Below are positions 13,341-58,587 of a stretch of 64,000 nucleotides of DNA, one piece after another; within the stretch, counting starts at the first letter, position 1; the number at the start of each line of letters is the position of its first letter. The stretch comes from an uncultured Anaerolineae bacterium (GTDB lineage: Bacteria; Chloroflexota; Anaerolineae; VGOG01): contig CAZEBW010000004.1 of assembly GCA_964510205.1 (NCBI GenBank), positions 3,638 through 67,637 of the forward strand, in the 5' to 3' direction. Under the pieces are notes generated by a model that was not told the DNA's origin, made no database searches, and worked only from the letters and a program-made list of their open reading frames with translations. The position numbers were made by a program, and so were the translations under genes.

Positions 13341-13419
13341 TGAAGTCCCCCCATAGAAGGAAAGCCCACCGGGATGCAGGAGAGTTGGGCCGGATAAACT
13401 AAGGTGTTCTGCGATATCG

Positions 13420-14727
13420 CTATGGGCTGCCAGGCGGCAATGCAATCGCTGATCTTATGGATTGCAGAGTGGCCATCACGTCGGAAGGCAGAAGGATCTT
13501 GGTCGCTGGATCGGAGGCCATTTTCTCCAGAGCTTCAATGAAACGCAAGGCTATGAATTGTGGAATCGGGATGTTCTTAGTCTCCATCTGACGGAAGCCT
13601 TCGGTGATGGCTATGATCATTCTAGTTTGAGCTTGTGCTCTGGCAACCTCAATCAGGTTATATACTTCAGCCTGTGCCTCGCCTTCAGTGATGAGGACTT
13701 GCTTGCGACTCTCCGCCATGCGCGCTTCCCAGTCTACTTGCCATTTCTTTTGCATTCCTTCCCTAATTTCCGGAGGCACCTCAATATTCAGCATCTGAAA
13801 GCTTATGATAGTGCCTCCCCAGCCTTCGGCTATCTTTCGCAGGGAATCTCGGACACGCTGCTTGATGTCGCTTTGAGGGAACGTGTTGGGATCCAGTGGG
13901 TCAAAGATATCATCCAAGTAACGTTTGCCAATCTCGTCGCGAAGCAGATTCTTGGCTACTTCGATAGTGGCGATTTCCCAGTCATAGCTATCGTAGGTAG
14001 CTTTGAGGACCGCCTCTCTAGAGAATGGATAGGGCTTCTCTGGGTTCCACACCTTGGCTGGATCCTGCGCGATGCGGAATAGAACGCTATAGTGGATGGT
14101 CACCGGTATGCCATCTTTGGTTGAGGCATTATCTAGCGTTCCTCTCCTGAACCGTTTCCGTGTGACGATGACCTTCCTGATACTTTCAAAAGGCTTGGTG
14201 CGCACTGCACCGGGCCCCTCAATGCGAGTGAATTTCCCCATCCGCTCGAAGACAACGGCTTGCTCGTTGCGTATTACGATCAAATTGGCTACCTTGAAGC
14301 CGGCGAGTGCGCCTTTGGACTTCACCTCGTCCACTTGGCCATCTTCAACGATGATGTAGCTTCCCAGGAATAGCTCTCCGGTGACAAAAGAGAGTAAATA
14401 CCGAAAGCAGTCCCACTGATTGCCGCCCCGGCTGACCAGTATGAGTTGCGAGGCCAGAAACAGGAGACTGCCTGTTAAGAATAGATAGACAGCCAGCCCC
14501 AATACTGCCCCCGTCAGGCCTCTCGTGACGAAGGAGAAGGTCAGAAACACCCCACTTGCAGTGAAGAATATCGCCAGCGCCACGCCCTTGCTCTGGCCCA
14601 TCCTGACAAGACACCCAAGGGAGACCACAGCGAGCCATACTAGGCCCCATTTGGGCTCGTGAACTACAGAGACTAAAATCAGTAGTGGAAGCAGGGCTAC
14701 GGACAACACAAGCAAGATCTTCTTCAT
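13420..14727 (-). CDS. SPFH/band-7 (stomatin/prohibitin-like) membrane protein
   Basis: Four N-terminal TM helices, then VIRNEQAVVFERMGKF...TKDGIPVTIHYSVLFRI...GWGGTIISFQMLNIEVP and a coiled-coil tail. AAGGAGAG RBS precedes ATG 14727. Confidence 0.75.
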   Translation of the reverse strand: MKKILLVLSVALLPLLILVSVVHEPKWGLVWLAVVSLGCLVRMGQSKGVALAIFFTASGVFLTFSFVTRGLTGAVLGLAVYLFLTGSLLFLASQLILVSRGGNQWDCFRYLLSFVTGELFLGSYIIVEDGQVDEVKSKGALAGFKVANLIVIRNEQAVVFERMGKFTRIEGPGAVRTKPFESIRKVIVTRKRFRRGTLDNASTKDGIPVTIHYSVLFRIAQDPAKVWNPEKPYPFSREAVLKATYDSYDWEIATIEVAKNLLRDEIGKRYLDDIFDPLDPNTFPQSDIKQRVRDSLRKIAEGWGGTIISFQMLNIEVPPEIREGMQKKWQVDWEARMAESRKQVLITEGEAQAEVYNLIEVARAQAQTRMIIAITEGFRQMETKNIPIPQFIALRFIEALEKMASDPATKILLPSDVMATLQSIRSAIALPPGSP

Positions 14728-14903
14728 AGCACAAGCTCTCCTTGTTTCTGTCAGCACTCTTAAGGTACGTGAGACTGCCGTCCAGTGCGTTCAACACGAG
14801 CTTATCTGACGGCGCCACAGGTATCACCCAGTTTCCATAGATCGAGGCAAAACCAAAAGGCCGCGGCTCGATATCGAAAACGTTTTGCAATGAGGGTGCT
14901 CAC

Positions 14904-16418
14904 TCAGCTCTGGGCGATCAAAATGGGGGAAGCCCAAGTCAAGTCATCCTTATTACGCATTGCCAGCTCTCGCCGGGCATCCAGCAGTGCCAGTTCAGGG
15001 CTGCCGTGCTGGAGCATAGAACGATAGAACGCCAGTGCCATTTCCTTGGCGCTCACTGCCGGCACTGACCACCTGTAGCCCAAAACAGACGGCACCCCTG
15101 ATTGGATAATTCCATCAGCGATACCCAGGTAGTCATCGTCCAGCAAATCAACCGGGCTGCCGGTACGAGTGCCCTCGCAGCACGTCAGGTGAAACAAACG
15201 GGTGTCAGAATCTTCCAACAGCCATCTCAGCTCATTTCCGGTCATTGGCTTTATATTCCCTGACCGGTTGCTGTCTTCCCAGAAGAACAATCTGCTCTGT
15301 TCCGGAGACCCCTCGTGAAAGACTCCGTGACCAACATAATGCACGATGTGATGCTTACACCCACGGAGCATTTCTTGCACTGCACTGTATGTAGCTGCTT
15401 CGGTTCTGACATGAGTCAAATCCAACCAGTTCAGTGGCGACAGCAAATCCACCAACTCTTCTCCGATTTTGTCAATCAGATCAATGCGTGGCTCAGTGTT
15501 GGACACGAGCAGTAGAACACGCAGGTTCTCGCCTGAACTGGCGAGACGTCGTATGAGTTCAGCAGAGATGGGTTCACGCCTCGTCACTACGCCTCGAATT
15601 TGGCGGACCATTGGATGGAGCAGTGTAAGGTAATCACCAGCCTCATCGGAAAAGATGAACTCCAGTGGCAATCCTGCCAGATCTCGGGTGGATTCAAACA
15701 CGAGGTGCAAGTATTGGTTCATTTGCGTCCTACCGAGTGCTCGGTGATACCCGTTGAGTACCGCAGAGTGCTGTTCGAACAGCAGGCGGTATAGCTCCCG
15801 TCCCACGTCTTTGATCAGAAAGCGGCGGTCTGCTGTGCTCATCATGCGTTCGCTTCCCCAGCGTGCAAAACGTGGAGCGTCGAGGCTTAGTGGATTGACA
15901 GAGGTGTATGTGAAGCGGATGTTGCCACGGCCCCGCACAAGAAGTCGCTGCCCTGGCTCTAGCGAGATTGTAATTTCGCACTCTTGGCTCGGCTCAAAGA
16001 CCGGCAATTGCCATTTCAATGACCTACTGATCACGCTATCCATCACTTTAACCACATCTTCTATCATGGTCTTTGGGAGGTACTCGGCTACAAGTCGCCG
16101 TCCAGTTGCATCAGGTTCCAGGGCGCGCCTCATCGTGTCAGGGGTACCATAGCCGGTGATAATGACAATCGGGAGCCCAGGGAATCGTCGTTTAAGCTCA
16201 GCAGCTAGATCAAGGCCTTCTAGGTTGCCTTCATCTGTCTCGTCCAAGCGCATGTCAAGTAGGGCTGCGTCGAAATGCTCTCGGTCAGACAAATCCAGGG
16301 CTCGCGCAACACTGGCAGCCGTTTTGGTTGCGTAGCCCTCGTCAATCAAGAGTTGTGAAAGGGTCACTCGCCAGTCAAACAAATCATCTACGATAAGCAC
16401 CTGGATTTGTTTAGTCAT
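14904..16418 (-). CDS. Response-regulator receiver fused to CHAT (caspase-like) peptidase domain
   Basis: REC features: VLIVDD...LLDMRLDE...ITGYG...LPK. CHAT features: HIVHYVGHG (His), LFHLTCCEG (Cys), SVLGYRWSV. The ATG overlaps the stop of the upstream kinase by 8 nt. Confidence 0.85.
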   Translation of the reverse strand: MTKQIQVLIVDDLFDWRVTLSQLLIDEGYATKTAASVARALDLSDREHFDAALLDMRLDETDEGNLEGLDLAAELKRRFPGLPIVIITGYGTPDTMRRALEPDATGRRLVAEYLPKTMIEDVVKVMDSVISRSLKWQLPVFEPSQECEITISLEPGQRLLVRGRGNIRFTYTSVNPLSLDAPRFARWGSERMMSTADRRFLIKDVGRELYRLLFEQHSAVLNGYHRALGRTQMNQYLHLVFESTRDLAGLPLEFIFSDEAGDYLTLLHPMVRQIRGVVTRREPISAELIRRLASSGENLRVLLLVSNTEPRIDLIDKIGEELVDLLSPLNWLDLTHVRTEAATYSAVQEMLRGCKHHIVHYVGHGVFHEGSPEQSRLFFWEDSNRSGNIKPMTGNELRWLLEDSDTRLFHLTCCEGTRTGSPVDLLDDDYLGIADGIIQSGVPSVLGYRWSVPAVSAKEMALAFYRSMLQHGSPELALLDARRELAMRNKDDLTWASPILIAQS

Positions 16419-17205
16419 GGCTGCTATCCGTGGGAGTTTCTATGGCTTTGATCACAGGGAGTGTGATCGCTATCGTCGTGCCGTGGCCAATCTCAGTATG
16501 TTTTACACTAATCTCTCCACCAAACCTGGCAAGTATCAAATGCGCTAACCAGAGACCCAGGCCCTTGTTGGTCCCGGTTGACGGAATCGGACCCTGAAAA
16601 AGATCGGCAAGAATGAGTTGCGGTATCCCTGTTCCGTTATCTGCAATCTCTACTCGCACTGTGTTGTCCGCGTCCACGTACTGGGTATGGATGTCAATAT
16701 GTCCGGGTTTTTTGCTTGTTGCTTGGATCGAGTTTTCGAGCACCGCCCGGAAAACCTCCGCGAGCAAGTGGCTATCAGCACGCACGGGAGGGACATCCTC
16801 TGGAAAATCAAAACTCACCCGTACTGTCTTGGAAGTGTGGCTAGCAGAAAGTTCTTCCCAGACCTCATACAGCAGTGAGTTTACGTCTAAGGGCATAGGC
16901 GGCTCACTCGGCTCTCTGAGTACTTCGACGGCGGCACTTAATTCGCTCAAACTGCTAATGGTCTTTTCTATGGCTGTGACCAGGTCGAGGGCGGCTCTAT
17001 CGTTGCTATTGATGTATTCCTTAAGACGACCGACTCGAACTCCCAGCAACCCAGTCAAGTTGGAGAGCTGGTGCAGTAATGCAGCAGAAGCCATCCCCAG
17101 TGCAATGAGGCTGGCCTCCTCCCCGTGGCTACGGTTAGGATGTGCACTTTCTTGCGGTAGGGGTGGATTTGGTCTCTGACTTTCCCGGTCATTTGGTGGA
17201 CTCAT
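16411..17205 (-). CDS. Sensor-less cytoplasmic histidine kinase (DHp + HATPase_c only)
   Basis: H-box-like AALLHQLSNLTG. ATPase N/G boxes VLENSIQAT, IADNGTGIP, GLGLWLAHLI. No TM or sensor domain. Confidence 0.8.
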   Translation of the reverse strand: MSPPNDRESQRPNPPLPQESAHPNRSHGEEASLIALGMASAALLHQLSNLTGLLGVRVGRLKEYINSNDRAALDLVTAIEKTISSLSELSAAVEVLREPSEPPMPLDVNSLLYEVWEELSASHTSKTVRVSFDFPEDVPPVRADSHLLAEVFRAVLENSIQATSKKPGHIDIHTQYVDADNTVRVEIADNGTGIPQLILADLFQGPIPSTGTNKGLGLWLAHLILARFGGEISVKHTEIGHGTTIAITLPVIKAIETPTDSSHD

Positions 17206-17241
17206 TTGTCGGATTCTCCCAAGCGCGGCGCGTCCTTCAGT

Positions 17242-18717
17242 TCACTCCTGATGAATCAAGATAGGCGACAACCAGGTTGGATCGTTTCTGTCCATAGCGG
17301 CCAGCTCGCGCCTTGCGCTCCAGAGGGCGAACTCCGGCCCCCCTTGCTCCAATAAGGACTGGTAGAAAGCCAACGCCAGCCGACGGGCTCCATCATCTGA
17401 CACAGGCCAGCGGAAGCCCAGCACCGAGGGTGCGCCGGCCTGCGCGACAGCGTCGGCCAGCCCAAGGAAATCGTCATCCAGCAAAGCAGCCTGAGCGCCG
17501 CTGGCTGTGCCATAGCAACTGCTCATGTACACCAGACGTGCTTCCGAGCGCCTGAGTAGCATCTTTAGTTCGGTTGCTTTCATCGGCATGACGCCACCTT
17601 GCTTATTCTCCTGGGCCCAGAAGTATAGGCTGCTATCTTCAGGGGACTCGGTCCTGTACGAGCCATGTCCTGCGTAATGTACAATGTCGTAACTGGGCTT
17701 CCCCAACTCTGATCTTACGCGCTCATACGTGGCGCGCTCCGTGGGGATGAGTTTAACACTGACAGGGATGCAGTCCTGGCTCTTTAAGTACTCGTACAGT
17801 GCCTGCGCCTCGGCATCTACGCCGTCTATTGGAGGCTGTGTGTTAGAGGCGATAATCAGAATTCGCAATTCCTGAGTCAGTGCCAGCAGCGAAGGGGAAA
17901 TCAGGCTGCGTTTCGGGGTAGCATTGTATAGAAAACGGGCGAGGGGGTGTTGAAGTACCAGGTACTCTGGAGGATCATCCGAGCGCATAAATTCCAATGG
18001 TAGTCTGAGAAATTCCCTGGGCGTCTCAAAAAGCATTGAAAACGACTGGCTCTTGGCGCGCGCTTCCACATAGGCTTTTTCGGCTTCAGGGTGCTCAGTA
18101 AATATGTCACGCCACAGACTGTGGCCGATCTCCCCAACCTGGAAACGCAAATTGCTCACGTCTCTTCTGGCGAGTTCTGTCCGCCTTGCATAGCGTTCGA
18201 GTGCCACACGCAACACTTTCCACGAGCGCAAGGAACAGACGTGGCGACCGCGCGCCCTGATCACCAGAGGCTGTCCGGCTGTGAGTGATAGAGATAGCTG
18301 GGTAGCATCACCTGTCTTCTCAAACCTCGGCTTGGTTGCCTCCTGGCGTGCTTTCGCGATAGTCTCCAGAACTTGTTCAGCCACATCCGGGGTTTTTTCG
18401 ATGAAGTCAACTACTCCGAGATATCGAATCGCGCGTACAATTTGCTTGGTTCTCGGGTAGCGTGTGAGCAGGATGACGCGAACCCGCGGATTGAGGGCGC
18501 GGAATGCCATCGCCAGGCTCAATCCGCTTTCGTCCTCTTCATCATCTCCGTGCAGGCGCACGTCAATGAGAGCAAAGTCGAACGGTTCTTGCGTGACAGC
18601 AACCAGGGCTTGTTCCTCGTTGGCCGCTGACCGGACGGTGTATCCTTCATCGGAAAGTCGCCCTGCTAACGTGGTACAGAAATCGGCATGGTCATCTACT
18701 ATCAGAATCTTGCACAT
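17242..18717 (-). CDS. Response-regulator receiver fused to CHAT (caspase-like) peptidase domain
   Basis: REC features: ILIVDD...LIDVRLHGDDEEDE...LLTRY...IEK. CHAT features: DIVHYAGHG (His), LVYMSSCYG (Cys), SVLGFRWPV. Start chosen at MCKILIVDD (ATG 18717, GAGGG RBS); upstream in-frame ATGs at 18732 and 18768 are possible. Confidence 0.85.
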   Translation of the reverse strand: MCKILIVDDHADFCTTLAGRLSDEGYTVRSAANEEQALVAVTQEPFDFALIDVRLHGDDEEDESGLSLAMAFRALNPRVRVILLTRYPRTKQIVRAIRYLGVVDFIEKTPDVAEQVLETIAKARQEATKPRFEKTGDATQLSLSLTAGQPLVIRARGRHVCSLRSWKVLRVALERYARRTELARRDVSNLRFQVGEIGHSLWRDIFTEHPEAEKAYVEARAKSQSFSMLFETPREFLRLPLEFMRSDDPPEYLVLQHPLARFLYNATPKRSLISPSLLALTQELRILIIASNTQPPIDGVDAEAQALYEYLKSQDCIPVSVKLIPTERATYERVRSELGKPSYDIVHYAGHGSYRTESPEDSSLYFWAQENKQGGVMPMKATELKMLLRRSEARLVYMSSCYGTASGAQAALLDDDFLGLADAVAQAGAPSVLGFRWPVSDDGARRLALAFYQSLLEQGGPEFALWSARRELAAMDRNDPTWLSPILIHQE

Positions 18718-18757
18718 TGCTACCCTCTTCATCAACTGTCTGATGGGACGCTCCGGG

Positions 18758-19639
18758 TCATCCAGCATTCCCCCAATTTGCCTGTATGTAACTCGTTGTC
18801 GCCTTTACGTCCAGGCTGCGAGTCGAATTGCCAATACGCACCCAGAACTTGTGAACATCGCCCGTCGCCAGGAACACCGGCTTTGGGCTTTTTTCAATCG
18901 CAACGATGCAGACGTGTTTACCATCTATGGGTTCGAAGCGTGTGCGAATGTATGGCATATATTCTAGACCCACATAGGTCTTGACAATATCCGTCAATGC
19001 CAATTGAAACCCATCGGTATTTGGCTTGCGCAGAGTTTGTAAGTCTTTTTCAATACCTAGCACCGTGCCATCGTCAGCGACGCCAATGAGTAGGGTCCCA
19101 CCCTTGCTGTTCAACATTCCTGTGATTGCCACGGCGATCGTTTCCTGCAGGCTCTTGTTAGTTGTGTTTTTCTTGAAATCCCAGCGGATACTGGACTTGA
19201 ATTCCACGTGGTCATTTTCACCTTGGGCAATCAAATTGAGTACCGAGCGTTCAAATGCGCGGTTCACGTACTCCGGCAGTTGGTCTACTTCAGATTTTTC
19301 CAGGAAGCCAAACGCTGGTGATACTCCCTCGCGATCAGGTTGAAGGACCTCCCTCACCATCCTGACGTTTGCATAGCCGGTCAAGATAATGATGGCCACA
19401 TGGGGGTCCTTCTCTCTGATCTCGCGCATAAGCAAGATGCCATCTTGGTTGTCCTCGTCGGCCTCGTCCAAGCGCACGTCCAGAACTGCGACGTGAAAAC
19501 GCTCGGCGTCCAACATTTGCAGAGCCTCAACTCTGCTGGATGCCGAGCGTACTTCATAGCCTTCGTCTGACAAAAGGCCCGACAATGTTGCGCACACGTC
19601 GGGCAGGTCATCTACTACGAGAACGCGACCTTTGTACAT
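18758..19639 (-). CDS. Response-regulator receiver fused to AlbA_2 (Schlafen-like, putative nucleic-acid-binding) domain
   Basis: REC features: VLVVDD...VLDVRLDEADEDN...LTGYA...LEK. C-terminal features: GENDHVEFKSS...MLNSKGGTLLIGVADDGTVLGI, matching the AlbA_2/divergent-AAA pattern. AGGAG RBS precedes ATG 19639. Confidence 0.75.
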   Translation of the reverse strand: MYKGRVLVVDDLPDVCATLSGLLSDEGYEVRSASSRVEALQMLDAERFHVAVLDVRLDEADEDNQDGILLMREIREKDPHVAIIILTGYANVRMVREVLQPDREGVSPAFGFLEKSEVDQLPEYVNRAFERSVLNLIAQGENDHVEFKSSIRWDFKKNTTNKSLQETIAVAITGMLNSKGGTLLIGVADDGTVLGIEKDLQTLRKPNTDGFQLALTDIVKTYVGLEYMPYIRTRFEPIDGKHVCIVAIEKSPKPVFLATGDVHKFWVRIGNSTRSLDVKATTSYIQANWGNAG

Positions 19640-19665
19640 GGCACTCCTGCCGATTGCATCTTGTC

Positions 19666-20067
19666 TTATCGTGCCAACACTTCCTGTACTATCTTGACCA
19701 ACTCTTCGGTCTGGGTTTTCGGGATATAGTTCGCTACAAGTCTCCGGCCCTGCGTATCTGGCTCCATTGCCCGTCTCATGGTATCCGGCGTGCCGTAGCC
19801 TGTGATCATTACGACTTCGGTAGTGGGCCAATGTTGTTTGATCTCATCCGCCAGGTCCAGCCCCTCGGTGTTACTCTCGTCCGTCTCGTCCAGGCGCATG
19901 TCCAGTACTGCCAGATCAAAATGGCTGGTTTTGAGCAACTCCAATGCCGCAGGCGAAGACTCGGCAACCTGGACATCGTATCCCGCGTCCTCCAACAAGC
20001 CACCGAGCGTCGTGCGCCAATCTAGCAGGTCATCTACCACCAGAATCTTCTGCCGTTTGTTTGTCAT
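19666..20067 (-). CDS. Stand-alone response-regulator receiver
   Basis: ILVVDD...VLDMRLDETDESN...ITGYG...IPK. Closest in sequence to the REC of the 14904-16418 protein. Shows an ATGA start/stop overlap with the upstream gene. Confidence 0.9.
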   Translation of the reverse strand: MTNKRQKILVVDDLLDWRTTLGGLLEDAGYDVQVAESSPAALELLKTSHFDLAVLDMRLDETDESNTEGLDLADEIKQHWPTTEVVMITGYGTPDTMRRAMEPDTQGRRLVANYIPKTQTEELVKIVQEVLAR

Positions 20068-20453
20068 TCTCTTACTCCTTCGTGCTTACCATGGCGATTA
20101 CGCGGCACCTGTGGAAACAGAATGATCTCCCTGACCTGCTCGAAGAGATCCTCGCTTCCGAAAGACTTGGCGAAGTAGCGCATGGCTCCCAACCGGTAGG
20201 CCGCAAGCGCCTCTTGGGTCGTGGGTTGTACTGTTGTTACGACCACCCGCTTATCAGAGTATTTCTCAGCGATGACTGCAAGCACGTCCAGGCGGCGGGA
20301 GCTTGCGATGACCAGGTCGAACTGATCCGCTTCGAGTTCAGCGAGTGCTGCCTTGGTGTCAGGCGCAACGACGATTTCAAACTTGTTGAGATCGCTCTTG
20401 GCGAACTCAATCCAGCGAGGTTCGTCGTCAATGATCAGAATGCGAGTTTTCAT
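20064..20453 (-). CDS. Atypical (pseudo-)receiver domain protein; phospho-acceptor Asp replaced by Ser
   Basis: ILIIDDE...FDLVIASSRR...VVVTT...FAKSF. The acidic pair, Thr and Lys are kept, but the D57-equivalent reads S. AGGAGG lies 7 nt upstream of ATG 20453. Confidence 0.7.
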   Translation of the reverse strand: MKTRILIIDDEPRWIEFAKSDLNKFEIVVAPDTKAALAELEADQFDLVIASSRRLDVLAVIAEKYSDKRVVVTTVQPTTQEALAAYRLGAMRYFAKSFGSEDLFEQVREIILFPQVPRNRHGKHEGVRE

Positions 20454-20455
20454 GA

Positions 20456-23400
20456 TCACACCTCCTTTCCCGTCCCCGGCGCTGGGATCTGAACCAGCAT
20501 TGTTGTTCCAGTGGGATCGGTCTCTTCTATTATAGCATCACCGCCAATACTTTGCAACATCAGTCGGCTGAGCCAGAGACCCAGACCTGCCCCTCCGCCT
20601 GGCTCCTTGGATGGGACTGGTTTGACGAAGAGACGTTGCTGGACTTGCAGTGGGATGCCCGGTCCTGTATCCTGAACCCGCACACAGATATTACTGTCGG
20701 TCAGACGACTGGTAACTGCTAACTGGCCACCCGCCTTCATTGCTCGGTAGGCATTGTCAACCAAGTTGTAGAAGACCTCAGCGATCTGACCGATCGGGGC
20801 CCGAATCTGCGGCAGCGATTGATCCAGGTCTAGGGTATGTTCGATCGTTGATCGAATGGGATCCGTTCGCCACTGTTCTCTCACTTTACCCACCACGTCA
20901 CTCAGCACTGCGTTAATGTCCACATCCTGATCCTCGACCTCTCGCAGCGGTTCTTGAATGCGCGCGATGATATCCGACGTATAGCGGGCGTTACGTTCGA
21001 TGATGTCAAGGATCTCTGCAATCGTATCATTCGACATATCAACGCGCTTCCGCAGGCGCGTCACGTTGGGAACGATGATGTTGAAGGTATTATTGACACG
21101 ATGTTGTAAAGCTGCGATGGCCGTGCCCAGTGTGGCCAAGCGCTTGGTCGCGATGACTTCACTGCGTGCCTCCTCATATAACCGGGCATTCTCAAGGGCA
21201 ATGGCTGCCTGGTTGGCCATAGAGGAGATGACCTGCAAGTCCTGTTCATCGTAGGCCTGCTCTCTTTCCCAGTCGTAGATAGCGATCACGCCCAGAACCC
21301 TATTCTCCAGAACCATCGGGACACCTATCCAAGATTTGGCGACACGCCCGATGAACTCTTGATGTCCGGGCTGTCCATACCACGCTTTAGATTCCACTTG
21401 GGTGCGATGCAGGATTGGCTTCTTGGTAAGGATGACTTCTTCGGTCTTACCCCGCTTCTCCATATCAGCCTTGCGGGGATCGTAATGCACCTGCTCACCG
21501 TGCTCCGTTGCCAGACCGAAGCGGATCATCCCTGTTTCCTCGTCATACAGCGCGATGTACATGTCCTGTGCGCCGGTCAACTCCCTGGCCTGCTCGTAGA
21601 TTAGCTCCAGAATCTCATCTTGCTTCAGACGAATACCGGAGGTTAGTGCCTGTCCTACCTCATTCAGTGCCGCCAACGCCTGAACGCGCCGTGCGAGCTG
21701 CTGGTTGATCTCGTAGTAAAGCGTTGCATTATCCAACGCGATTGCCGCTTGGTTGGCCACAGAGGAGATGACCTGCAAGTCCTGTTCATCGTAGGCCTGC
21801 TCTCTTTCCCAGTCATAAATGGCGATCATACCCAGTACCTTCTCACCTGTGACCATGGGAACGCCCAAGTAAGAAGGCTGAACACGCCCGATGAACTCTT
21901 GATGTCCGGGCTGTCCATACCACGCTTTAGATTCCACTTGGGTGCGATGCAGGATTGGCTTCTTGGTAAGGATGACTTCTTCGGTCTTACCCCGCTTCTC
22001 CATATCAGCCTTGCGGGGATCGTAATGCACCTGCTCACCGTGCTCCGTTGCCAGACCGAAGCGGATCATCCCTGTTTCCTCGTCATACAGCGCGATGTAC
22101 ATGTCCTGTGCGCCGGTCAACTCCCTGGCCTGCTCGTAGATTAGCTCCAGAATCTCATCTTGCTTCAGACGAATACCGGAGGTTAGTGTCTGTCCCACCT
22201 CGTTCACTGCCTGTATAGCTTTATACAAGCGTGCGCTTTTAATAGCAACCGCTGCTGCCCCAGCTAGGGCCTCAACCAGACGCATGTGATCGTCTGTAAA
22301 GGCTCCGATTTGGGTACTCTCCAGATTGAGCGTTCCAATCACTCTGTCACGGTGTATCAACGGTGTTGTGAGTTCGGATTGTACTTCCTCAAACCACTCC
22401 TTGTAGTACGGATCGCTTTTGATATCGTTGCAAAGATATGTCTTTCTACTCAAGGCAACGTGTCCGTTGATGCTCGTCTCGTCTAGGGGTAGTCTCGTGA
22501 GGGTTCGCGTCGGCGTCTCATCCCTCTTGTTTCTCGCCCCAAATCGCAGTTCACGTGTCCGCTCGTCCAGCAACCAAATACTCGTATACTTGGCTGGCGT
22601 CAGCCTGGCCGCTTGCTCTGCGATTTGCTCCAGCAGATCCTCTAGGGAAGCAGTGCCAATGAGCGCGTATAGGTTCTGAAGAGCTCTGATATCATCAATT
22701 CGCTCTTGTAGGCTAGTCTGAGCCTCTTCGTACACACGGGCGTTATAGATAGCTGTCGCCGCTTGATTAGCGAACAGCTCGATAGCCCCCCGTTGCTCAG
22801 GAGTGAAGGGTTGTCGGCTCCGGTAATTGACGAACATAGCGCCCACGGTTTCGCCTGCTGCTTCGAGGGGGACGGCGGCTGACGATAGGATTCCCTCGCG
22901 CACTACAAAGCGCTTTTCCGGGCGCTCAGGGCGCTCTACGGTGAATGGGCCGGTGAGCAGGGTATCCGTCTGAGTATCGGGAGAGTAGAGGGGCTCTCCA
23001 CCCTCGACCACTTTCACAACGACATCATCCTTGAATATTTCGTCCTTGACAACTGTGGGGTCTCGGCGCTCTCCTTCCAAGATAGGTGGCATGATGTAAC
23101 GGTCATCCGCCTCAACGTACTGGTACACATCCACGAGATCGGCACCCAATACACTCCTGGCACTTCGCGCCACCTGACGCAATACCTCTCTCAACCCCTG
23201 TGCCGAAAGCTCAGCCGAGAGTATTCGTCCCCCAATCTGGTGCAGCCTCTGCAAGACTGCAGCCCGGCTGGTTGCCTGCTCAAGAAGTTGAGCATTGTGT
23301 ACAGCCACGGCGGACTGGCTGGCCACCGCCTCTAACAGCATCTGATCGTGCTCGTCAAAGCCGCTCAGCCCGTCCATATCAGCAGAGATCACCCCAATAA

Positions 23401-24193
23401 CCTCGTCTTGCAAGATTATGGGCGCCAGCACCATTGAGCGCTCGACGATGTCTGACGACAAACCGGGGACAAACTGAGGGTGCTTGACCGCATCCGGGAC
23501 GAGTTCTGATTGCTTGGTTTGGGCTACCCACCCGGCCAACCCGACCCCTTGGGCGAACTGCTGTCGTGCGATGCCTGCTGACGAGGCAGCTTCCAACGCT
23601 AGGTCACCGCTCTTATCCACTAGAAAAACGCTGATGTGCTTGCAATCCAGCACTCTTTCTGCGGCTTGCATAATGCGTGCGAAAAGATCGGCACGGCGCA
23701 ATTCGGAACTGATCAAGAGGCTCACTGCGTTCAGGGTCGCCAGATCCTGAATTCGACGCTGCGTGGCAGCCACTTGAGCGGAAGAACTCTCAATCAGCGC
23801 CTTCTCGAAATCAGTGAAATCCCTTGCCTCACGGGTATAAACGTCAAGCACACCAACGATTTTCCTTTTTACTCGTAGTGGTACCACCATAGCCGACTTC
23901 AGTCCCATAGCGGTGGTTTCTGGTTTGTACTTCCAGCGAGCATCGGTGTCAACGTCTGTCACGACGATTGCCTGTTCAGTCGCAAAAACGTCAGACGCGA
24001 CACTGGGCTCATCCAGGCGCAGAAACGCATCGCGAACGTATTCCTCTGACAACTCTGTCGCTGCAGCGATCCGGAGGGTTTCCCCCGTTTCATCGGCAAG
24101 CCAGATACAGGCCGGCAGTCCCAGAGTCTGGCTTATGGTCTCCACCACGGGTTGAAAGAACTGCTTTTTATCAAGTTCTTGAGAGGGGATCAT
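20456..24193 (-). CDS. Multi-GAF cytoplasmic histidine kinase (HisKA_2-like H-box + HATPase_c)
   Basis: 1245 aa with about five to six GAF-like modules judged by periodic motifs (e.g. VPL...VIGVL...). The C-terminus has AALQHRVNNTFN (an HRVxN-type H-box) plus LVDNAYRAM, VQDTGPGIP, GLGLWLSRLM. No TM segment. AAGGAGAG RBS. Confidence 0.9.
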   Translation of the reverse strand: MIPSQELDKKQFFQPVVETISQTLGLPACIWLADETGETLRIAAATELSEEYVRDAFLRLDEPSVASDVFATEQAIVVTDVDTDARWKYKPETTAMGLKSAMVVPLRVKRKIVGVLDVYTREARDFTDFEKALIESSSAQVAATQRRIQDLATLNAVSLLISSELRRADLFARIMQAAERVLDCKHISVFLVDKSGDLALEAASSAGIARQQFAQGVGLAGWVAQTKQSELVPDAVKHPQFVPGLSSDIVERSMVLAPIILQDEVIGVISADMDGLSGFDEHDQMLLEAVASQSAVAVHNAQLLEQATSRAAVLQRLHQIGGRILSAELSAQGLREVLRQVARSARSVLGADLVDVYQYVEADDRYIMPPILEGERRDPTVVKDEIFKDDVVVKVVEGGEPLYSPDTQTDTLLTGPFTVERPERPEKRFVVREGILSSAAVPLEAAGETVGAMFVNYRSRQPFTPEQRGAIELFANQAATAIYNARVYEEAQTSLQERIDDIRALQNLYALIGTASLEDLLEQIAEQAARLTPAKYTSIWLLDERTRELRFGARNKRDETPTRTLTRLPLDETSINGHVALSRKTYLCNDIKSDPYYKEWFEEVQSELTTPLIHRDRVIGTLNLESTQIGAFTDDHMRLVEALAGAAAVAIKSARLYKAIQAVNEVGQTLTSGIRLKQDEILELIYEQARELTGAQDMYIALYDEETGMIRFGLATEHGEQVHYDPRKADMEKRGKTEEVILTKKPILHRTQVESKAWYGQPGHQEFIGRVQPSYLGVPMVTGEKVLGMIAIYDWEREQAYDEQDLQVISSVANQAAIALDNATLYYEINQQLARRVQALAALNEVGQALTSGIRLKQDEILELIYEQARELTGAQDMYIALYDEETGMIRFGLATEHGEQVHYDPRKADMEKRGKTEEVILTKKPILHRTQVESKAWYGQPGHQEFIGRVAKSWIGVPMVLENRVLGVIAIYDWEREQAYDEQDLQVISSMANQAAIALENARLYEEARSEVIATKRLATLGTAIAALQHRVNNTFNIIVPNVTRLRKRVDMSNDTIAEILDIIERNARYTSDIIARIQEPLREVEDQDVDINAVLSDVVGKVREQWRTDPIRSTIEHTLDLDQSLPQIRAPIGQIAEVFYNLVDNAYRAMKAGGQLAVTSRLTDSNICVRVQDTGPGIPLQVQQRLFVKPVPSKEPGGGAGLGLWLSRLMLQSIGGDAIIEETDPTGTTMLVQIPAPGTGKEV
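21211..22200. repeat. In-frame 540-bp tandem duplication (one GAF module) inside the kinase gene
   Basis: 21342-21648 is identical to 21882-22188 (307/307 by eye). 21221-21274 is identical to 21761-21814. The roughly 65 bp between the two blocks are strongly diverged. Confidence 0.9.
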
Positions 24194-24228
24194 GGGTCAC
24201 TCTCCTTGTCATCTGTAAATGGGCAGAT

Positions 24229-25569
24229 TCAATTATGAGGTTGGTGTCTCCAGACTTCCAATGACTCCCTATATCCCGCTTCCGAAAATGCTAACCCCTT
24301 CTCCCTCAGCATCATAGCGGTGAGAAGGTGAGGTAATCCTTTCTTCTTTTCCAGGAAGACGATTTGTGGGCCGGAAAGCGTACGCCTACCATTCTTCTTC
24401 AGGAATTGCATGAGCTGGCGACGTCCGCGCTCAACGGTCTTTAAGAAACGCTGTGCCTCGGTTGAGAAATAGGATTCCAGTTTCTCCTCGTCCTCCGGCG
24501 CCGCTCGCGAAGCGTTGCGCACTGTTTGGGAAATGCAATCTATCAGTGTGGGTAGAAACCCCCTGGTTTCGATGCCCAGAACAATCTGCCGCGTTACGAC
24601 ACCTCGAATCAATAGCTTAATGAGACGCTCTCGCCCATTCTTACCTGGAGGTGGAGCGCCATCTGCGACTAGGAAATACAGCGCCTTTAGATAATCTGCC
24701 ATCACATGTTCGCTGGCAGTGATCAACGATTCTGGCAGGTCAGGTGCGCGAACGAGACTATGTATGGTGTCTGTGATCGGTTGGTAACTACTTATCTCAA
24801 ACACTGATTGAGCATCTTGCAGGATCATTGCCACGCGCTCAGTGCCAATCACCGTTTCGAAGAAAGGCTCCGTCATCGGTTGGAGCCTTTGGGTCTTAGT
24901 GTCTATCTCGGTGCTGACAAAGAGTGAATTGGCGAATTCAACGAACCGACCGCACTGGCAAGGCGGCCGACAATCGGGGCCGCAGCCAAAGACCGCGCCT
25001 CGATCAAAGAACATCTCAGTATTGGGCCCGCATTTACGATAGCGAACTACCCCTTCAATGCCATTTCCTTGTTTCCAGAGGTTGTCCTTGACTCCCAGAC
25101 CTATGATCTGCTCTTCAGGCATCCCGATACTCCGCCAAGCTTGATGAGCCTCTACATCCTCGTCAAACGCATGCTTTGAAATCTTACCCCCGGCGAAATA
25201 AGTGACCCATATGTTGTCTGGCTTGATTCTCAGGTTTGAGGTCATGAACTCCCACATTTGCTGGATAACAGTTGCCTTGCTGAGAGCATTAAAGGAAAAA
25301 GCGGCGGGCATTTCAAACAAGCTTAGGTGCACATTGTCGGTTCCAACGGTGTCAATGTCGAAATATCTGAAGCACTTTTGCACCAGTGCATACTTATGCC
25401 CGGCACGCTTGCCCATCTGATCAAGAGCCTTTTCAAATTGCGGTAATCCAGCACTCATTACGAACGACATAGGAATAGAGGGATGCAACAGCGAGGCACT
25501 AGGCAGAACGGAGAATCCTTTGCCCTGGTAATAATCGAGGAACGTTTGGCTAATGGCTGGGGATCGCAT
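24229..25569 (-). CDS. Alanyl-tRNA synthetase catalytic-core paralog (aminoacylation + tRNA-recognition domains only; no editing or C-Ala domains)
   Basis: 446 aa, collinear with roughly the first 450 residues of bacterial AlaRS. Matching blocks: FLDYYQGKGF, VMSAGLPQF (vs FTNAGMNQF), QKCFRYFDIDTVG (vs QRCVR..NDLENVG), LFEMPAAFSF (vs FFEMLGNFSF), KCGPNTEMFFD (vs GPCGPCTEIFYD), ETVIGTERV (vs DTGMGLERI), YFLVADGAPPPGKNGRE (vs AFLIADGVMPSNENRGY). Confidence 0.8.
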   Translation of the reverse strand: MRSPAISQTFLDYYQGKGFSVLPSASLLHPSIPMSFVMSAGLPQFEKALDQMGKRAGHKYALVQKCFRYFDIDTVGTDNVHLSLFEMPAAFSFNALSKATVIQQMWEFMTSNLRIKPDNIWVTYFAGGKISKHAFDEDVEAHQAWRSIGMPEEQIIGLGVKDNLWKQGNGIEGVVRYRKCGPNTEMFFDRGAVFGCGPDCRPPCQCGRFVEFANSLFVSTEIDTKTQRLQPMTEPFFETVIGTERVAMILQDAQSVFEISSYQPITDTIHSLVRAPDLPESLITASEHVMADYLKALYFLVADGAPPPGKNGRERLIKLLIRGVVTRQIVLGIETRGFLPTLIDCISQTVRNASRAAPEDEEKLESYFSTEAQRFLKTVERGRRQLMQFLKKNGRRTLSGPQIVFLEKKKGLPHLLTAMMLREKGLAFSEAGYRESLEVWRHQPHN

Positions 25570-25621
25570 TTTCTAGCTCCAAATCACGCGATACACCGAA
25601 CGTTATTGTAGATGCATGAAT

Positions 25622-25650
25622 ATTATATCAAACCTGTCCTTAAATGTCAA
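25622..25650 (-). promoter_or_regulatory. Perfect consensus sigma-70 promoter for the island operon
   Basis: The minus strand reads TTGACA (25650-25645), an exact 17-nt spacer, then TATAAT (25627-25622), set in an AT-rich gap. About 50 nt of 5'UTR with a GGAG RBS precedes ATG 25569. Confidence 0.65.
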
Positions 25651-25704
25651 GGCATCCAAAATACTGGATAGACATACACCGTATCGTTCAAGGAGTTGGG
25701 GTAA

Positions 25705-26070
25705 TCACACATTCGGGTGATGGCACTTCTTCCCAGTCGAAAATATCTCTAGCGAAGGGGCATCATATCGAGGCCCTCCTTCGAAGTCCCTAACGAACCG
25801 GTAAAACTCGTCAATGAAGCTGACTAATTCATCAGTATGCTCACTGATCGCCTTGACATCAGGGGAGATGTTCTCCTTGAGTTCCCTCTTGAACTTTTCA
25901 TCCTTCTCCTCAAGAGCAGCCCAATCCCAAGCCCCGTCAAGGTACTTGCGAATCTCCCCTAGCACATGATCTCGTGCGAGTGTGAGATCAGATGGGCAAT
26001 CTTTTGCCTTTAATCTACGATAATCTAATTCCATTTCCCTGCAAAGGGCTGGCGCATGGTCTCTGTCCAT
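25705..26070 (-). CDS. Hypothetical protein; possibly the C-terminal part of a frameshifted lipoprotein gene
   Basis: 121-aa ORF. Its frame is open upstream to 26124 and it overlaps the 26025-26249 ORF. Confidence 0.4.
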   Translation of the reverse strand: MDRDHAPALCREMELDYRRLKAKDCPSDLTLARDHVLGEIRKYLDGAWDWAALEEKDEKFKRELKENISPDVKAISEHTDELVSFIDEFYRFVRDFEGGPRYDAPSLEIFSTGKKCHHPNV

Positions 26071-27872: not shown

Positions 27873-27920
27873 TCTCTTGTCAGCCTGAAGTTTACCAGAT
27901 TGTGGATGAATAGTCAAGAC

Positions 27921-27975
27921 GGTTCACTTTTCACGTTTTTTACGTTTCACGTTTCACGCTTCACGCATCACGTAG
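27921..27975. repeat. Heptamer tandem array TTTCACG (about 7 imperfect copies)
   Basis: ggttcacttttcacgttttttacgtttcacgtttcacgcttcacgcatcacgtagg. Confidence 0.8.
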
Positions 27976-29502: not shown

Positions 29503-31119
29503 TTGATGAAAGCTATACTGTCTCCAAGTGGCAGACGTAAAACGTCAAGCGTGAAACGTGAAACGTCAAACGTAGAACGTCAAGCGTCAGGTGCCAGGGG
29601 TCAAACGTTGAGGTTCAAAGCTATCTTGGCGACCTTGCTGATAAGCTTGGGGGCGCTGATCTTGTGCCAATCCCTGAGGGTGGAAGGGTCGCCCGTCCCC
29701 GCCTCTCCTGTCCTCCAGACTGAGGAGGAGAGGACGGCGGCGAGCGACGCGCCGTATCGGGCCCGCATCGTGATCAGCACTTCCTCTGACTGGACGCGGC
29801 TCTACGTTCGAGGTGGAGAGCGCATTTTGAACGCCAAAACTGCTATCCTGCAGGGCGACGCCGCCACGACGAAAGCGGAGTGGGACGGCGACGAGCTCTA
29901 TTTGGAACAGCCTCTGGCCAATGCTCCAGCCCAGACGGTCAAAGTGCAGTACGATCTGGTGATGACGGGCCTGGACAGTGACGGCCACGTCTTCTTCGAG
30001 AGCCAGAAAGGCGATTTGGGCGTCACCACCACGGAGTTCTACAATTACAGCTCATCTTCCGCTACTCCCATCGCCTCCTGGTCCAATCTGCTGGACAAAG
30101 CGGGCGATCCTTCCAATCCCTTCTCTTTTTCCATAGCCAGTTCCCATTTCACAACGGGTGGTCCCCTGCCCCTGCGGCACGTCTCGCCCAGATTGGTTTT
30201 GGCCTTTTATTATCCCTGGTACGATCTCGATTCCTGGTCGAGCCCAGTTCTCGAGGACCATCCGCTCATGCCTGCTAGTTCCGGCGACGTGGAAGCCATC
30301 ACCAGGCACGTCACCTGGGCACAGCAGCATGGCATTCACGGCTTCATCTCGTCCTGGTGGGGTTCGGGCAACTACCGCGATGCCAATTTCGCCAAGTTGC
30401 TCTCCGTGGCGGAAGGCACCGATTTCAAAGCAACTATCTACTTCGAAACCCTGGGCGAACGTTTCAGGACCCCCCAGGACGTTGTTCATCAGTTGGAGTA
30501 CGTCCTGGATTCCTACAGCGATCACCCCAACTTCCTGCGCTATCGGGGCCAGCCGGTGATTTTTCTTTACGCTGTGGACCACGTAGCCAGAGAGCCCGGC
30601 CAACCCCCCCTTCAGTCCTGGCAAGCCATACTGGGGCAGATGCGGGCTGATGGTTACGATGCAGTGTGGCTCGGCCAGACCTTCGATCCCAGCTATCTGC
30701 AGGTGTTCGACGGCCTGCACGCCTACGGCTTCTATGCCCCAGATATGGCTGAGGTGTACGCTTCGGTTTCGGGCCAGGTGAGGAGCTATCAATTCCTGCA
30801 CGACCCGACCGCCGAGCGGAAGATCTGGGCGCCAGCGGTCATGCCGGGCTATGACGACGACCTGTTGGGCCGCCCAGGTTCCTGGTATCTGGATCGAGCC
30901 GGTGGGGACGCCTACGGCTTCACTTTCCAAGCGGCCATTCAGTCCCAGGCCGATTGGATCGTCATCACCAGCTTCAACGAGTGGTGGGAGCACACTCACA
31001 TCGAGCCCAGCGACCGCTACGGGTTCACTTATCTGGGGCTGACTAAGGAGTGGTCGGACGCTTTTCTGGCTGGAGCTCCTCAACTCACTTTCCTGCCCCT
31101 GATCACCAAGAACTGGTAG
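29503..31119 (+). CDS. Membrane-anchored glycoside hydrolase, GH99-like
   Basis: N-terminal TM anchor. LAFYYPWYDLDSW and ITSFNEWWEHTHIEPS resemble GH99 endo-alpha-mannosidase blocks (recalled from memory). An alternative TTG start at 29608 would exclude the repeat-encoded tail. Confidence 0.5.
   Translation: MMKAILSPSGRRKTSSVKRETSNVERQASGARGQTLRFKAILATLLISLGALILCQSLRVEGSPVPASPVLQTEEERTAASDAPYRARIVISTSSDWTRLYVRGGERILNAKTAILQGDAATTKAEWDGDELYLEQPLANAPAQTVKVQYDLVMTGLDSDGHVFFESQKGDLGVTTTEFYNYSSSSATPIASWSNLLDKAGDPSNPFSFSIASSHFTTGGPLPLRHVSPRLVLAFYYPWYDLDSWSSPVLEDHPLMPASSGDVEAITRHVTWAQQHGIHGFISSWWGSGNYRDANFAKLLSVAEGTDFKATIYFETLGERFRTPQDVVHQLEYVLDSYSDHPNFLRYRGQPVIFLYAVDHVAREPGQPPLQSWQAILGQMRADGYDAVWLGQTFDPSYLQVFDGLHAYGFYAPDMAEVYASVSGQVRSYQFLHDPTAERKIWAPAVMPGYDDDLLGRPGSWYLDRAGGDAYGFTFQAAIQSQADWIVITSFNEWWEHTHIEPSDRYGFTYLGLTKEWSDAFLAGAPQLTFLPLITKNW
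29534..29590. repeat. Heptamer tandem array GAAACGT (reverse complement of the TTTCACG family)
   Basis: gacgtaaaacgtcaagcgtgaaacgtgaaacgtcaaacgtagaacgtcaagcgtcagg. It lies in the 5' end of the 29503 ORF and is encoded as RRKTSSVKRETSNVERQAS. Confidence 0.8.
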
Positions 31120-34815: not shown

Positions 34816-34882
34816 GTGATTCGTAGGTTCGTAGATTCGTAAATTCGTGGGTTCGTAGATTCGTAAGTTCGTAGATTCGTGT
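34816..34882. repeat. Octamer tandem array TTCGTAGA (about 8 imperfect copies)
   Basis: gtgattcgtaggttcgtagattcgtaaattcgtgggttcgtagattcgtaagttcgtagattcgtg, immediately upstream of eno. Confidence 0.85.
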
Positions 34883-38447: not shown

Positions 38448-38580
38448 GGGGTTCGTAGATTCGTAAATTCGTAAATTCGTAAATTCGTAGATTCGTAGAT
38501 TCGTGGGTTCGTGGATTTGATCCCGAATTTATGAGTCCCGAGTCTACGAATCTACCAGTTTCACGTTTCACGTTTTACGG
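38448..38580. repeat. Octamer array TTCGTAGA (about 9 copies), one inverted unit, then TTTCACG heptamers
   Basis: ggggttcgtagattcgtaaattcgtaaattcgtaaattcgtagattcgtagattcgtgggttcgtgg ... tctacgaatcta ... cagtttcacgtttcacgttttacgg. Confidence 0.85.
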
Positions 38581-38821: not shown

Positions 38822-38893
38822 GACGTCATGTGATGAAGCCGCCGCGACGTCATATGATGAAGCGGCCTCGACGTCATATGATTAAGCGGCCTC
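38822..38893. repeat. 24-bp tandem repeat, 3 copies
   Basis: gacgtcatgtgatgaagccgccgc / gacgtcatatgatgaagcggcctc / gacgtcatatgatTaagcggcctc. The third copy carries the stop codon of the GT-C ORF. Confidence 0.9.
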
Positions 38894-40990: not shown

Positions 40991-41024
40991 TGACTTAGGA
41001 CCTCGGACTTAGGACCTAGGACTA
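40951..41024. repeat. Inverted heptamer arrays GTCCTAC(G) / GGACCTA spanning a gene junction
   Basis: gtcctacgtcccacgtcctacgtctcacgtcc and ggacctcggacttaggacctaggac. These encode the N-terminus of paralog 1 and the C-terminus of paralog 2. Confidence 0.75.
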
Positions 41025-43332: not shown

Positions 43333-43418
43333 AGTCCATAGTCCTAGGTCCGATGGAAGGCGGCCTCGGACCTAGCGCGATTTCACAAAACAGGCATTGA
43401 TTCTTGAGACAGCGTCCG

Positions 43419-43530
43419 CCAGGGGCTCCGCTGCGCTCAAGCCCCTGGCTCAGTCTACAAAGCCCCCGCTGGGGCTGGGGTCGTCAGGCCGCAGGCCTTT
43501 GTACCTGAGCCCGGCGGCTTCAGCCCCGGG
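43419..43530. repeat. Intergenic nested-hairpin element
   Basis: gccagggg...cccctggc, and ctcagtctacaaagcc...ggcctttgtacctgag enclosing gcccc/ggggc stems. Confidence 0.4.
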
Positions 43531-43583
43531 CGGAGTGGCGGCGGAGTCAACCTTTGTTGTGTGATGCAGTGCTAGGCTTGGAT

Positions 43584-56074: not shown

Positions 56075-56099
56075 CTTTCCTTCCATTCGCTTCTCTTGC

Positions 56100-58539: not shown

Positions 58540-58587
58540 TCTAACCTTCGACCTCCAATCTCCAACCTCTAACCTCCAACCTCCATT
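58446..58587. repeat. Inverted heptamer arrays GGAAGGT/GGTGGAA and CCTCCAA bracketing the GT2 start codon
   Basis: ggaagttggaaggtggaaggtggaagatgg (58446-58476, in the CDS, encoded as HLPPSNFRLE) and ccttcgacctccaatctccaacctctaacctccaacctcc (58545-58585, in the 5' leader). Confidence 0.8.

Follow-up and report, generated by a model that had tools for sequence, protein, structure and literature searches.

Two adjacent GAF modules of an Anaerolineae histidine kinase: an ancient pair, probably homogenised by intragenic gene conversion around a diverged beta-hairpin

How can two neighbouring modules of one protein be identical over hundreds of nucleotides and, within that identity, enclose a short segment in which almost every second position differs? 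Such a mosaic is found in a histidine kinase gene on the minus strand of the DNA analysed here (the window, 64,000 nucleotides [nt] from an uncultured Anaerolineae bacterium). Its product carries six GAF domains, the last two of which, GAF5 and GAF6, form a tandem pair next to the kinase part. Because the gene lies on the minus strand, the upstream module GAF5 is the copy at 21674-22213, and GAF6 the copy at 21134-21673. As the most probable explanation, we propose that GAF5 and GAF6 form an ancient pair of paralogues, subject to episodes of gene conversion within the gene that have left an island, a beta-hairpin, unconverted. The elements on which this proposal rests are the following.

20456-24193, minus strand: histidine kinase gene, 1245 amino acids (aa), six GAFs; from the list of open reading frames (ORFs), translation and Pfam.
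21674-22213, minus strand: GAF5 unit, aa 661-840, upstream pair member with patch version A1 (QPSYLGVPMVTGEKVLGM), ending in the inter-unit linker; from unit alignment, hidden Markov model segmentation and the codon table.
21134-21673, minus strand: GAF6 unit, aa 841-1020, downstream pair member with patch version A2 (AKSWIGVPMVLENRVLGV), ending in the linker to the kinase helix.
21882-22188, minus strand: tract A in GAF5, 307 nt, probable donor.
21342-21648, minus strand: tract A in GAF6, 307 nt, probable acceptor; synonymous divergence (dS) 0.015 over unit aa 10-111.
21815-21881, minus strand: diverged patch of GAF5, version A1 (QPSY...GEKVLGM).
21275-21341, minus strand: diverged patch of GAF6, version A2 (AKSW...LENRVLGV), predicted beta-hairpin, unit residues 112-133.
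21761-21814, minus strand: tract B in GAF5, 54 nt, encoding DWEREQAYDEQDLQVISS; dS 0.
21221-21274, minus strand: tract B in GAF6, 54 nt, same as 21761-21814.
21186-21220, minus strand: start of the GAF6 C-terminal helix (MANQAAIALENARLY), resembling 21726-21760 of GAF5 with many synonymous differences.
21649-21715, minus strand: inter-unit linker (YEINQQLARRVQAL / AALNEVGQA), position-specific and conserved across orthologues, at no time homogenised with the linker next to the kinase.

When the window was compared with a copy of itself shifted by 540 nt, 21342-21648 proved equal to 21882-22188 over 307 nt, and 21221-21274 to 21761-21814 over 54 nt, both without a mismatch. Within 20900-22300, these two blocks are the only identical runs of at least 12 nt at this offset, and a repeat search of the window gave the same spacing. 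Since 540 nt are 180 codons, the repeat is in frame. All this agrees with an earlier reading of the bare sequence (the original prediction), which had also noted that the roughly 65 bp between the blocks differ heavily: the patch of 67 nt (21275-21341 versus 21815-21881) indeed has 29 mismatched sites (43%), and its two copies translate to VAKSWIGVPMVLENRVLGV and VQPSYLGVPMVTGEKVLGM, the peptides given there. Over the whole units, 52 mismatches are spread over 501 alignable nt; when such differences were placed at random 100,000 times, the longest identical run reached 127 nt at most (mean 40), and with an analytic bound of 1.6e-22 for a run of at least 307 nt, a chance origin of tract A is excluded. 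Similarity extends from about 21186 to 21667 versus about 21726 to 22207, that is, over some 480 of the 540 bp, and over the final 39 nt, in the linker, GAF5 and GAF6 are 28% identical. Segment by segment, nucleotide identity between the units runs 0.78, 0.99, 0.60, 0.98, 0.65 and 0.28. No further copy of the tract was detected in the 64-kb window.

The segments outside the identical tracts are old. Among the patch codons whose amino acid is unchanged, 9 of 13 differ synonymously, and the Nei-Gojobori (NG86) estimates for the patch are 3.27 for dS and 0.40 for nonsynonymous divergence (dN). In the C-terminal helix (aa 812-826 versus 992-1006), 33% of the nucleotides differ, nine codons do so synonymously only, and dS is saturated; inside the identical tracts, dS is 0.015 (tract A) and 0 (tract B). 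Being so rich in synonymous differences, the helix must be old sequence that was not converted. Likewise, because codons for conserved Gly, Val, Pro, Ala, Ile and Tyr have changed at their silent positions, the patch is not that of a young duplicate diversified at chosen residues. Mutagenesis of the diversity-generating retroelement (DGR) type, with a template and a variable repeat, was considered and rejected on the substitution spectrum: the 29 differences cover all 12 substitution types and are not limited to adenines, with an adenine in either copy at 7 of the 29 sites. A Pfam scan of 20 window ORFs, not exhaustive for the window, gave no match to a reverse transcriptase.

A search of a public protein collection returned 159 relatives at E ≤1e-30, the best 45 of which were used for GAF counts and have 4 to 10 GAF domains each. 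The named homologues among the matches listed come from Chloroflexota metagenome-assembled genomes (Anaerolineae, Thermoflexales and others). In what follows, P-numbers denote homologous proteins and L-numbers contigs or loci of relatives (P0002 = L087, P0038 = L081). A tandem pair of the GAF5/GAF6 type sits beside the kinase in 49 of the best 70 homologues, and the closest orthologues (P0005, P0013, P0008, P0002 and L088) all bear it, a single-copy state being absent among them. It is therefore misleading to speak, as the title of the original prediction did, of one GAF module duplicated in tandem: the pair is ancient and found throughout the family, and the ends of its units are dissimilar. 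Ten relative loci with gene calls were retrieved, nine of them with DNA (all but P0041), and two neighbours of the kinase gene served to compare their gene order.

24229-25569, minus strand: tRNA-synt_2c-like gene, 446 aa, upstream of the kinase (Pfam, 5e-70), synteny marker of orthologous loci.
20064-20459, minus strand: response-regulator receiver (REC) gene (Pfam Response_reg), its start overlapping the kinase stop, first of several downstream REC genes.

Eight of the ten loci (P0002, P0003, P0006, P0020, P0027, P0028, P0038 and P0041) have a tRNA-synt_2c-like gene upstream of the kinase; the short contigs of P0005 and P0008 do not show it. Adjacent REC genes follow the kinase at nine of the ten, and the P0002 locus stops 52 bp past the kinase gene. 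The eight loci with shared synteny are thus true orthologues. Over the ten loci, the number of GAFs is 4 (P0027, P0028), 5 (P0008), 6 (P0005, P0020, P0038, P0041), 8 (P0002, P0003) or 9 (P0006).

Within this family, the two members of a pair resemble each other more than either resembles its counterpart elsewhere, the hallmark of concerted evolution. That is, GAF-core identity averages 0.70 within a pair and, between proteins, 0.58 for first with first, 0.56 for second with second and 0.57 for first with second units. Since same-position and other-position identities are equal between proteins, deep positional orthology has been erased from the cores. The C-terminal linkers behave differently, having their nearest neighbour in another protein at the same position in 93 of 98 units, and the conservation of the inter-unit linker shows that the pair arrangement is orthologous and was not remade by independent duplications. 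Gene conversion would leave sharp-edged identical tracts within older divergence, and this is what the window holds: tracts with dS of 0 to 0.015 within synonymously diverged sequence (3.27 or saturated). The tracts of the relatives form a decay series, from a perfect 418-nt tract in P0038 (offset 534, gene nt 1441-1858 versus 1975-2392, hairpin included) over 102 nt in P0002 and many runs of 20 to 59 nt in P0006, P0020, P0003 and P0008 to none in P0005; the sequence of P0006 is the same in two independent assemblies.

Two types of cassette occur, A with the motif YDWERE (the window's kinase and others) and B with YHPTRD (P0005 and others). The majority of proteins combine two units of one type (AA or BB); P0014 is AB and P0036 and P0047 are BA, and in such heterotypic pairs within-pair identity is 41-56%. 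The closest orthologue of the window's kinase, P0005, is 72-89% identical over GAF1 to GAF4, 93% over the DHp region and 83% over the ATPase (CA) domain, and merely 50-52% over the pair. As an observation in its own right, the GAF pair behaves as a cassette with a history unlike that of the rest of the protein (comparison with P0005, P0013, P0008, P0002, P0038 and P0020); in P0038 and P0020, the pair is 70-80% identical to that of the window and the kinase domains are unrelated (26-33%).

The two patch versions are likewise older than the genome that carries them. The nearest relatives of the GAF5 patch at the nucleotide level are the first units of P0002 (0.82), P0020 (0.80) and P0003 (0.77), and those of the GAF6 patch are the units of P0038 (0.83) and the first unit of L088 (0.81), whereas the two patches are 0.60 identical to each other, below the 0.82-0.83 that they share with units of other genomes. 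Tract A has 0.85-0.87 amino acid identity to A1-type units, the patch type of GAF5 itself, and 0.66-0.70 to A2-type units. GAF6 is therefore a mosaic with different nearest relatives for its segments, its tract A grouping with A1-type and its patch with A2-type units. Because tract A is A1-like, the simplest history starts from an A1-type GAF5 and an A2-type GAF6 and has GAF5 sequence copied over most of GAF6; judged from these affinities, GAF5 was probably the donor of the long tract and GAF6 the acceptor. A pair of the presumed starting kind is retained in P0055, with one A2-like and one A1-like unit of 66% core identity.

The same design occurs in a diverged relative, L088, the sole contig returned by a metagenome scan with a wobble-degenerate pattern for QDMYIALYDEETG. 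Its DNA is about 80-85% identical to that of the window, its units also lie 540 nt apart, and its tract A is 99% identical between them (2 mismatches in 307 nt). Ahead of the patch, identity breaks off at the very codon where it does in the window, and its upstream boundary lies within about 3 nt of the corresponding position there. L088 has both patch versions (AKSWLGVPMILEDRVPGV and QPSYLGVPMIVGERMLGM, 0.81 and 0.73 identical to those of the window), in opposite units. Linkers are 0.82 and 0.77 identical between the two genomes at the same position and 0.26 at the other, so helices and linkers stay positional. Tract A is 85% identical between the two genomes and 99-100% within each, and homogenisation must thus have continued after the lineages split, with both hairpins surviving. 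Separately, at about 2171-2217 of L088 the sensor is interrupted, one ORF encoding an N-terminal multi-GAF part without kinase and a second ORF three GAFs with the kinase, which could reflect a frame change or a real gene split.

For the 15 type-A pairs, we calculated an index of excess within-pair identity along the unit. This homogenisation index is 0.5-0.6 at unit aa 26-105, drops to about 0.2 at aa 106-121, returns to 0.3-0.4 past aa 121 and falls below zero in the linker; partners differ more often than random units do at columns 113 and 116. Together with the tract, boundaries and patch versions shared by L088, this dip fits the second possibility raised in the original prediction, ongoing gene conversion that spares a segment, within the limits set out below.

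As for the nature of the spared segment, an AlphaFold2 model of GAF6 (26-sequence alignment) has a GAF fold with a mean predicted local distance difference test score (pLDDT) of 88.6, and the 50 best PDB matches are GAF domains without exception (5w10, 3ci6, 2zmf, DosS and others). Best in both structure and sequence is 5w10, the cAMP-bound GAF of Lcd1, which shares the fold (Foldseek E 5.5e-11, 24% identity; profile E 2.5e-11). In the model, the patch corresponds to the central beta-hairpin at unit residues 112-133, with predicted strands at 114-122 and 125-134. Its changes concentrate at 112, 113, 115 and 116 (before or at the first strand), in the turn 122-125 and at residue 129. In GAF structures with bound ligand, one face of these strands makes up the bottom of the pocket and the other packs on the N- and C-terminal helices; the ligand-proximal position suggested for the segment in the original prediction is conjectural.

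How might conversion spare such a segment? We infer that homologous recombination between the units 540 bp apart, intrachromosomal or between sister chromatids, repeatedly copies one onto the other non-reciprocally, the latest event or events having rendered the 307 bp and 54 bp identical. The patch, the start of the C-terminal helix and the linkers would have escaped and kept their old, synonymously saturated divergence, with the A1 and A2 hairpins being old versions that co-occur in related genomes. Once a diverged island lies between identical blocks, the mosaic could sustain itself: as heteroduplex formation needs near-identity, events would be initiated within homogenised sequence and break off on reaching the patch, 40% diverged, or the linkers, so that later conversions begin in the blocks and end at the edges of the island. 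Such a homology barrier alone can keep an existing island, perhaps aided by selection that favours two different hairpins; for the persistence of the island, a pure barrier and selection are equally good explanations. The swapped hairpins of L088 would require more than one event, an expansion and a contraction, or small patch-level exchanges. The latter is what the close relatives P0027 and P0028 look like; a clean patch swap between them, considered as a candidate, was not clean.

Several observations weigh against episodic conversion with a spared hairpin. Averaged over all 49 pairs, type B included, sparing of the patch shows no dip (patch 0.69, core 0.70), and over the same pairs same-position and other-position identities of the patch are equal. 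In P0038, the patch has been converted as well; with the flat 49-pair average, this means that sparing is not universal. The orientation of Y-type versus W-type patches (9 versus 4 pairs, p = 0.27) is not significant, and one conversion cannot produce the swapped patch order of L088. The family statistics are uncorrected for shared ancestry, and some of the apparent concerted evolution could stem from units being duplicated and lost again and again, against which, however, the conserved inter-unit linker argues. On the side of the assembly, the kinase protein occurs once in the public collection (NCBI, one 92-kb contig), the perfect identity of the tracts could be inflated by short-read bubble-popping that erased a few single-nucleotide polymorphisms, and which patch belongs to which unit hinges on spanning the 54-nt tract B.

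A stronger version of the conversion model, in which the scaffold is kept near-identical and selection keeps one A1 and one A2 hairpin per protein in either order, strikes us as rather unlikely. If true, the hairpins might confer two ligand specificities or provide an obligatory asymmetric GAF-GAF contact, and the hairpin would be a small exchangeable specificity cassette shuffled between units and lineages, with conversion keeping the scaffold uniform.

The pair might instead have been fully homogenised first, one patch being re-imported later from another source, namely a paralogous multi-GAF gene at a different place in the genome or foreign DNA that was taken up and recombined. Compatible with such an import are the different nearest relatives of the segments (P0008, P0019 and P0002 for tract A, P0038 for the GAF6 patch), the phylogenetic incongruence of the pair cassette with the rest of the protein, the patch order that differs between the window and L088, and the small exchanges in P0027 and P0028. 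A third copy is missing from the 64-kb window, however, and L088 bears the same pair of versions, for which ancestral retention is simpler; moreover, the existence of pairs like that of P0055, A1-like and A2-like throughout, makes an import unnecessary. We consider it improbable.

The assembly points listed above could also be taken further, such that two units are real and their perfect identity, their number or the assignment of the patches results from the collapse or re-threading of short reads. An exact repeat of 307 nt is longer than usual k-mers and reads, the source protein is known from one contig only, a contig look-up by exact sequence gave no recorded gene for this product, and the patch order is reversed relative to L088. 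Against an artefact stands the unique inter-unit linker (21649-21715), which is joined to unit sequence on both sides, so that at least two units must exist, and which is orthologous to the inter-unit linkers of relatives; on this sequence evidence, the two-unit structure is secure. Independent assemblies of relatives share the design, including the 418 identical nt of P0038 and the P0006 sequence found twice, and in L088 the 2 mismatches in 307 nt show that the copies were resolved. Since tract B is only 54 nt long, ordinary reads tie each patch to its position-specific helix. We therefore regard an artefact as quite improbable. Least likely, and contradicted by the data, is a recent in-frame tandem duplication of one GAF module with rapid, targeted diversification of the 67-bp patch, the other possibility raised in the original prediction: it would account for a spacing of exactly 180 codons and 361 perfectly identical nt, but similarity and synonymous divergence should then be uniform and the latter low, whereas only about 480 of 540 nt are alike, the unit ends are unrelated, dS is high in the patch with its nine silently changed codons and saturated in the helix, the substitution spectrum does not fit DGR-type mutagenesis, both patch versions occur at 0.8 nucleotide identity in other genomes, to which they are closer than to each other, and the pair exists in 49 relatives.

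Episodic conversion between GAF5 and GAF6 would be a known process on a new substrate, mechanistically ordinary concerted evolution within one gene. Full-text literature searches yielded no paper in which gene conversion or concerted evolution is connected with GAF arrays or with histidine kinases. Among prokaryotes, duplicated tuf genes and rRNA operons are examples of concerted evolution. Concerted evolution of prokaryotic paralogues by gene conversion has been surveyed (Wang and Chen 2018, PMC6053082), and such cases are like the present one in that copies within a genome are more alike than orthologues, identical tracts are sharp-edged and the process recurs over the long term. They differ in that the partners here are domain modules in one ORF, 540 bp apart, rather than separate genes, and in that conversion is confined here to the domain core, bounded by position-specific linkers, with an internal island left.

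The closest parallels to the island itself come from primates. In the red/green opsins and in RHD/RHCE, tandem paralogues are mostly homogenised and a short, functionally distinct segment differs in several lineages; the opsin islands are explained by selection on known tuning sites. For the GAF hairpins, by contrast, a functional difference is putative at most, and the homology barrier explains the island equally well. In architecture, the GAF5/GAF6 pair is like GAF-A/GAF-B of the cyclic-nucleotide phosphodiesterases and of the cyanobacterial adenylyl cyclase CyaB2 (PDB 1ykd), tandem GAFs with long helices directly upstream of an output domain. Those pairs are anciently diverged and show no homogenisation, and the protein described here differs further in its histidine kinase output and in the four GAFs that precede the pair.

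The locus would thus provide a clean, datable case of concerted evolution acting on domain modules within a single bacterial sensor gene. In the same operon of different species, the sensor has 4 to 9 GAFs, its pairs may be heterotypic, fully homogenised or in between, and time and again a short hairpin is left out of homogenisation. Near-identical sensor domains should hence not be taken as a sign of recent duplication; domain trees of such GAF arrays will mislead, and short-read assemblies of such genes need checking. Should the hairpin difference be functional, the natural chimeras, with one scaffold and two hairpins in either order, would be ready tests of GAF specificity.

Direct repeats of 307 nt and 54 nt might also serve as substrates for unequal exchange. 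It is plausible that the long repeat yields in-frame variants with five or seven GAFs; the variation in copy number that we see is that across the family, whose members have one, two or three units of the pair type. A precedent is cagY of Helicobacter pylori, in which recombination between direct repeats within the gene, always in frame, changes the number of repeats, as seen experimentally (PMC2194252). The kinase gene shares with cagY the long direct repeats within one gene; unlike that surface protein under immune pressure (PMC2194252), it encodes a cytoplasmic sensor, and its variation, from 4 to 10 GAFs, lies only between species. A comparison of one-copy with two-copy orthologues had been suggested in the original prediction; the closest orthologues have two copies, and the rare one-unit proteins look like contractions. 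In P0019 (aa ~838-900), for instance, behind the single pair-type unit comes a linker in which the inter-unit type (NATLYYETNQEL...) is joined to the kinase-proximal type (LYEEARSEAIAAKQLATLG), apparently the trace left when two units contracted to one. Inter-unit spacings among orthologues are 516, 519, 534, 540 and 561 nt (with the linkers of P0002 and P0018 examined), and at 561 nt a heptad of the helical linker is present twice (NRKLEDA-NRKLERR), a duplication that would keep the coiled-coil register.

In the kinase as a whole, the six GAFs, assigned as six stretches by Pfam (PF01590 / PF13185 / PF13492; GAF_2 359.9 bits, cut-off 28.6; GAF 310.8 bits, cut-off 22.4), are followed by a DHp-like helix with His1031 in LQHRVNN (21101-21103) and by HATPase_c (PF02518, aa 1137-1238, window 20480-20785, 63.5 bits, cut-off 26.4, 3e-17). 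No HisKA-type Pfam family matched the kinase with E below 0.01; the motif LQHRVNNTF around His1031 is conserved among orthologues, and we take it to resemble the HRVKN box of HisKA_2/HWE kinases. ORFs antisense to the kinase gene (for example, 21359-21604 and 21749-22144) were dismissed as an expected by-product of a long gene on the opposite strand. A third copy of repeat family D3 at 25723-25745 (78%, 23 nt) was set aside as a chance match, its host ORF 25705-26070 having no Pfam hit. An Rfam search of both strands of 19500-26000 gave no match at E ≤0.1.

The kinase gene belongs to an operon on the minus strand (11841-25569) that comprises the tRNA-synt_2c-like gene, the kinase, two single-domain REC proteins, REC-Schlafen/AlbA_2, REC-CHAT, a HATPase_c-only protein, a further REC-CHAT, Band_7 and TPR proteins. 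Its order past the kinase recurs in L080 and partly in other orthologous loci (L081-L091). From these domain assignments, a single kinase may feed several receiver-fused effectors, caspase-like (CHAT) and Schlafen-like, which would be an unusual set of outputs.

Elsewhere in the window, short tandem arrays with units of 7 or 8 nt in five to eight copies lie at 27919-27973, 29535-29589, 34818-34880, 38452-38517, 40304-40350, 41780-41815, 44369-44402, 45234-45289, 58446-58477 and 58543-58585. Several of them are inside ORFs of PMT_2-family glycosyltransferases, where one unit more or less would change the reading frame, and they may act as slipped-strand switches. Four consecutive paralogous genes for PMT_2-type membrane glycosyltransferases (702, 781, 780 and 1103 aa) occupy 38882-49234 on the minus strand. 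Finally, 53849-56140, also on the minus strand, encodes a 763-aa protein with 12 LVIVD repeats (beta-propeller), and the 126-nt tandem repeat that it holds at 54310-54635 (2.6 copies, 83%) is the trace, at the DNA level, of 42-aa protein repeats.

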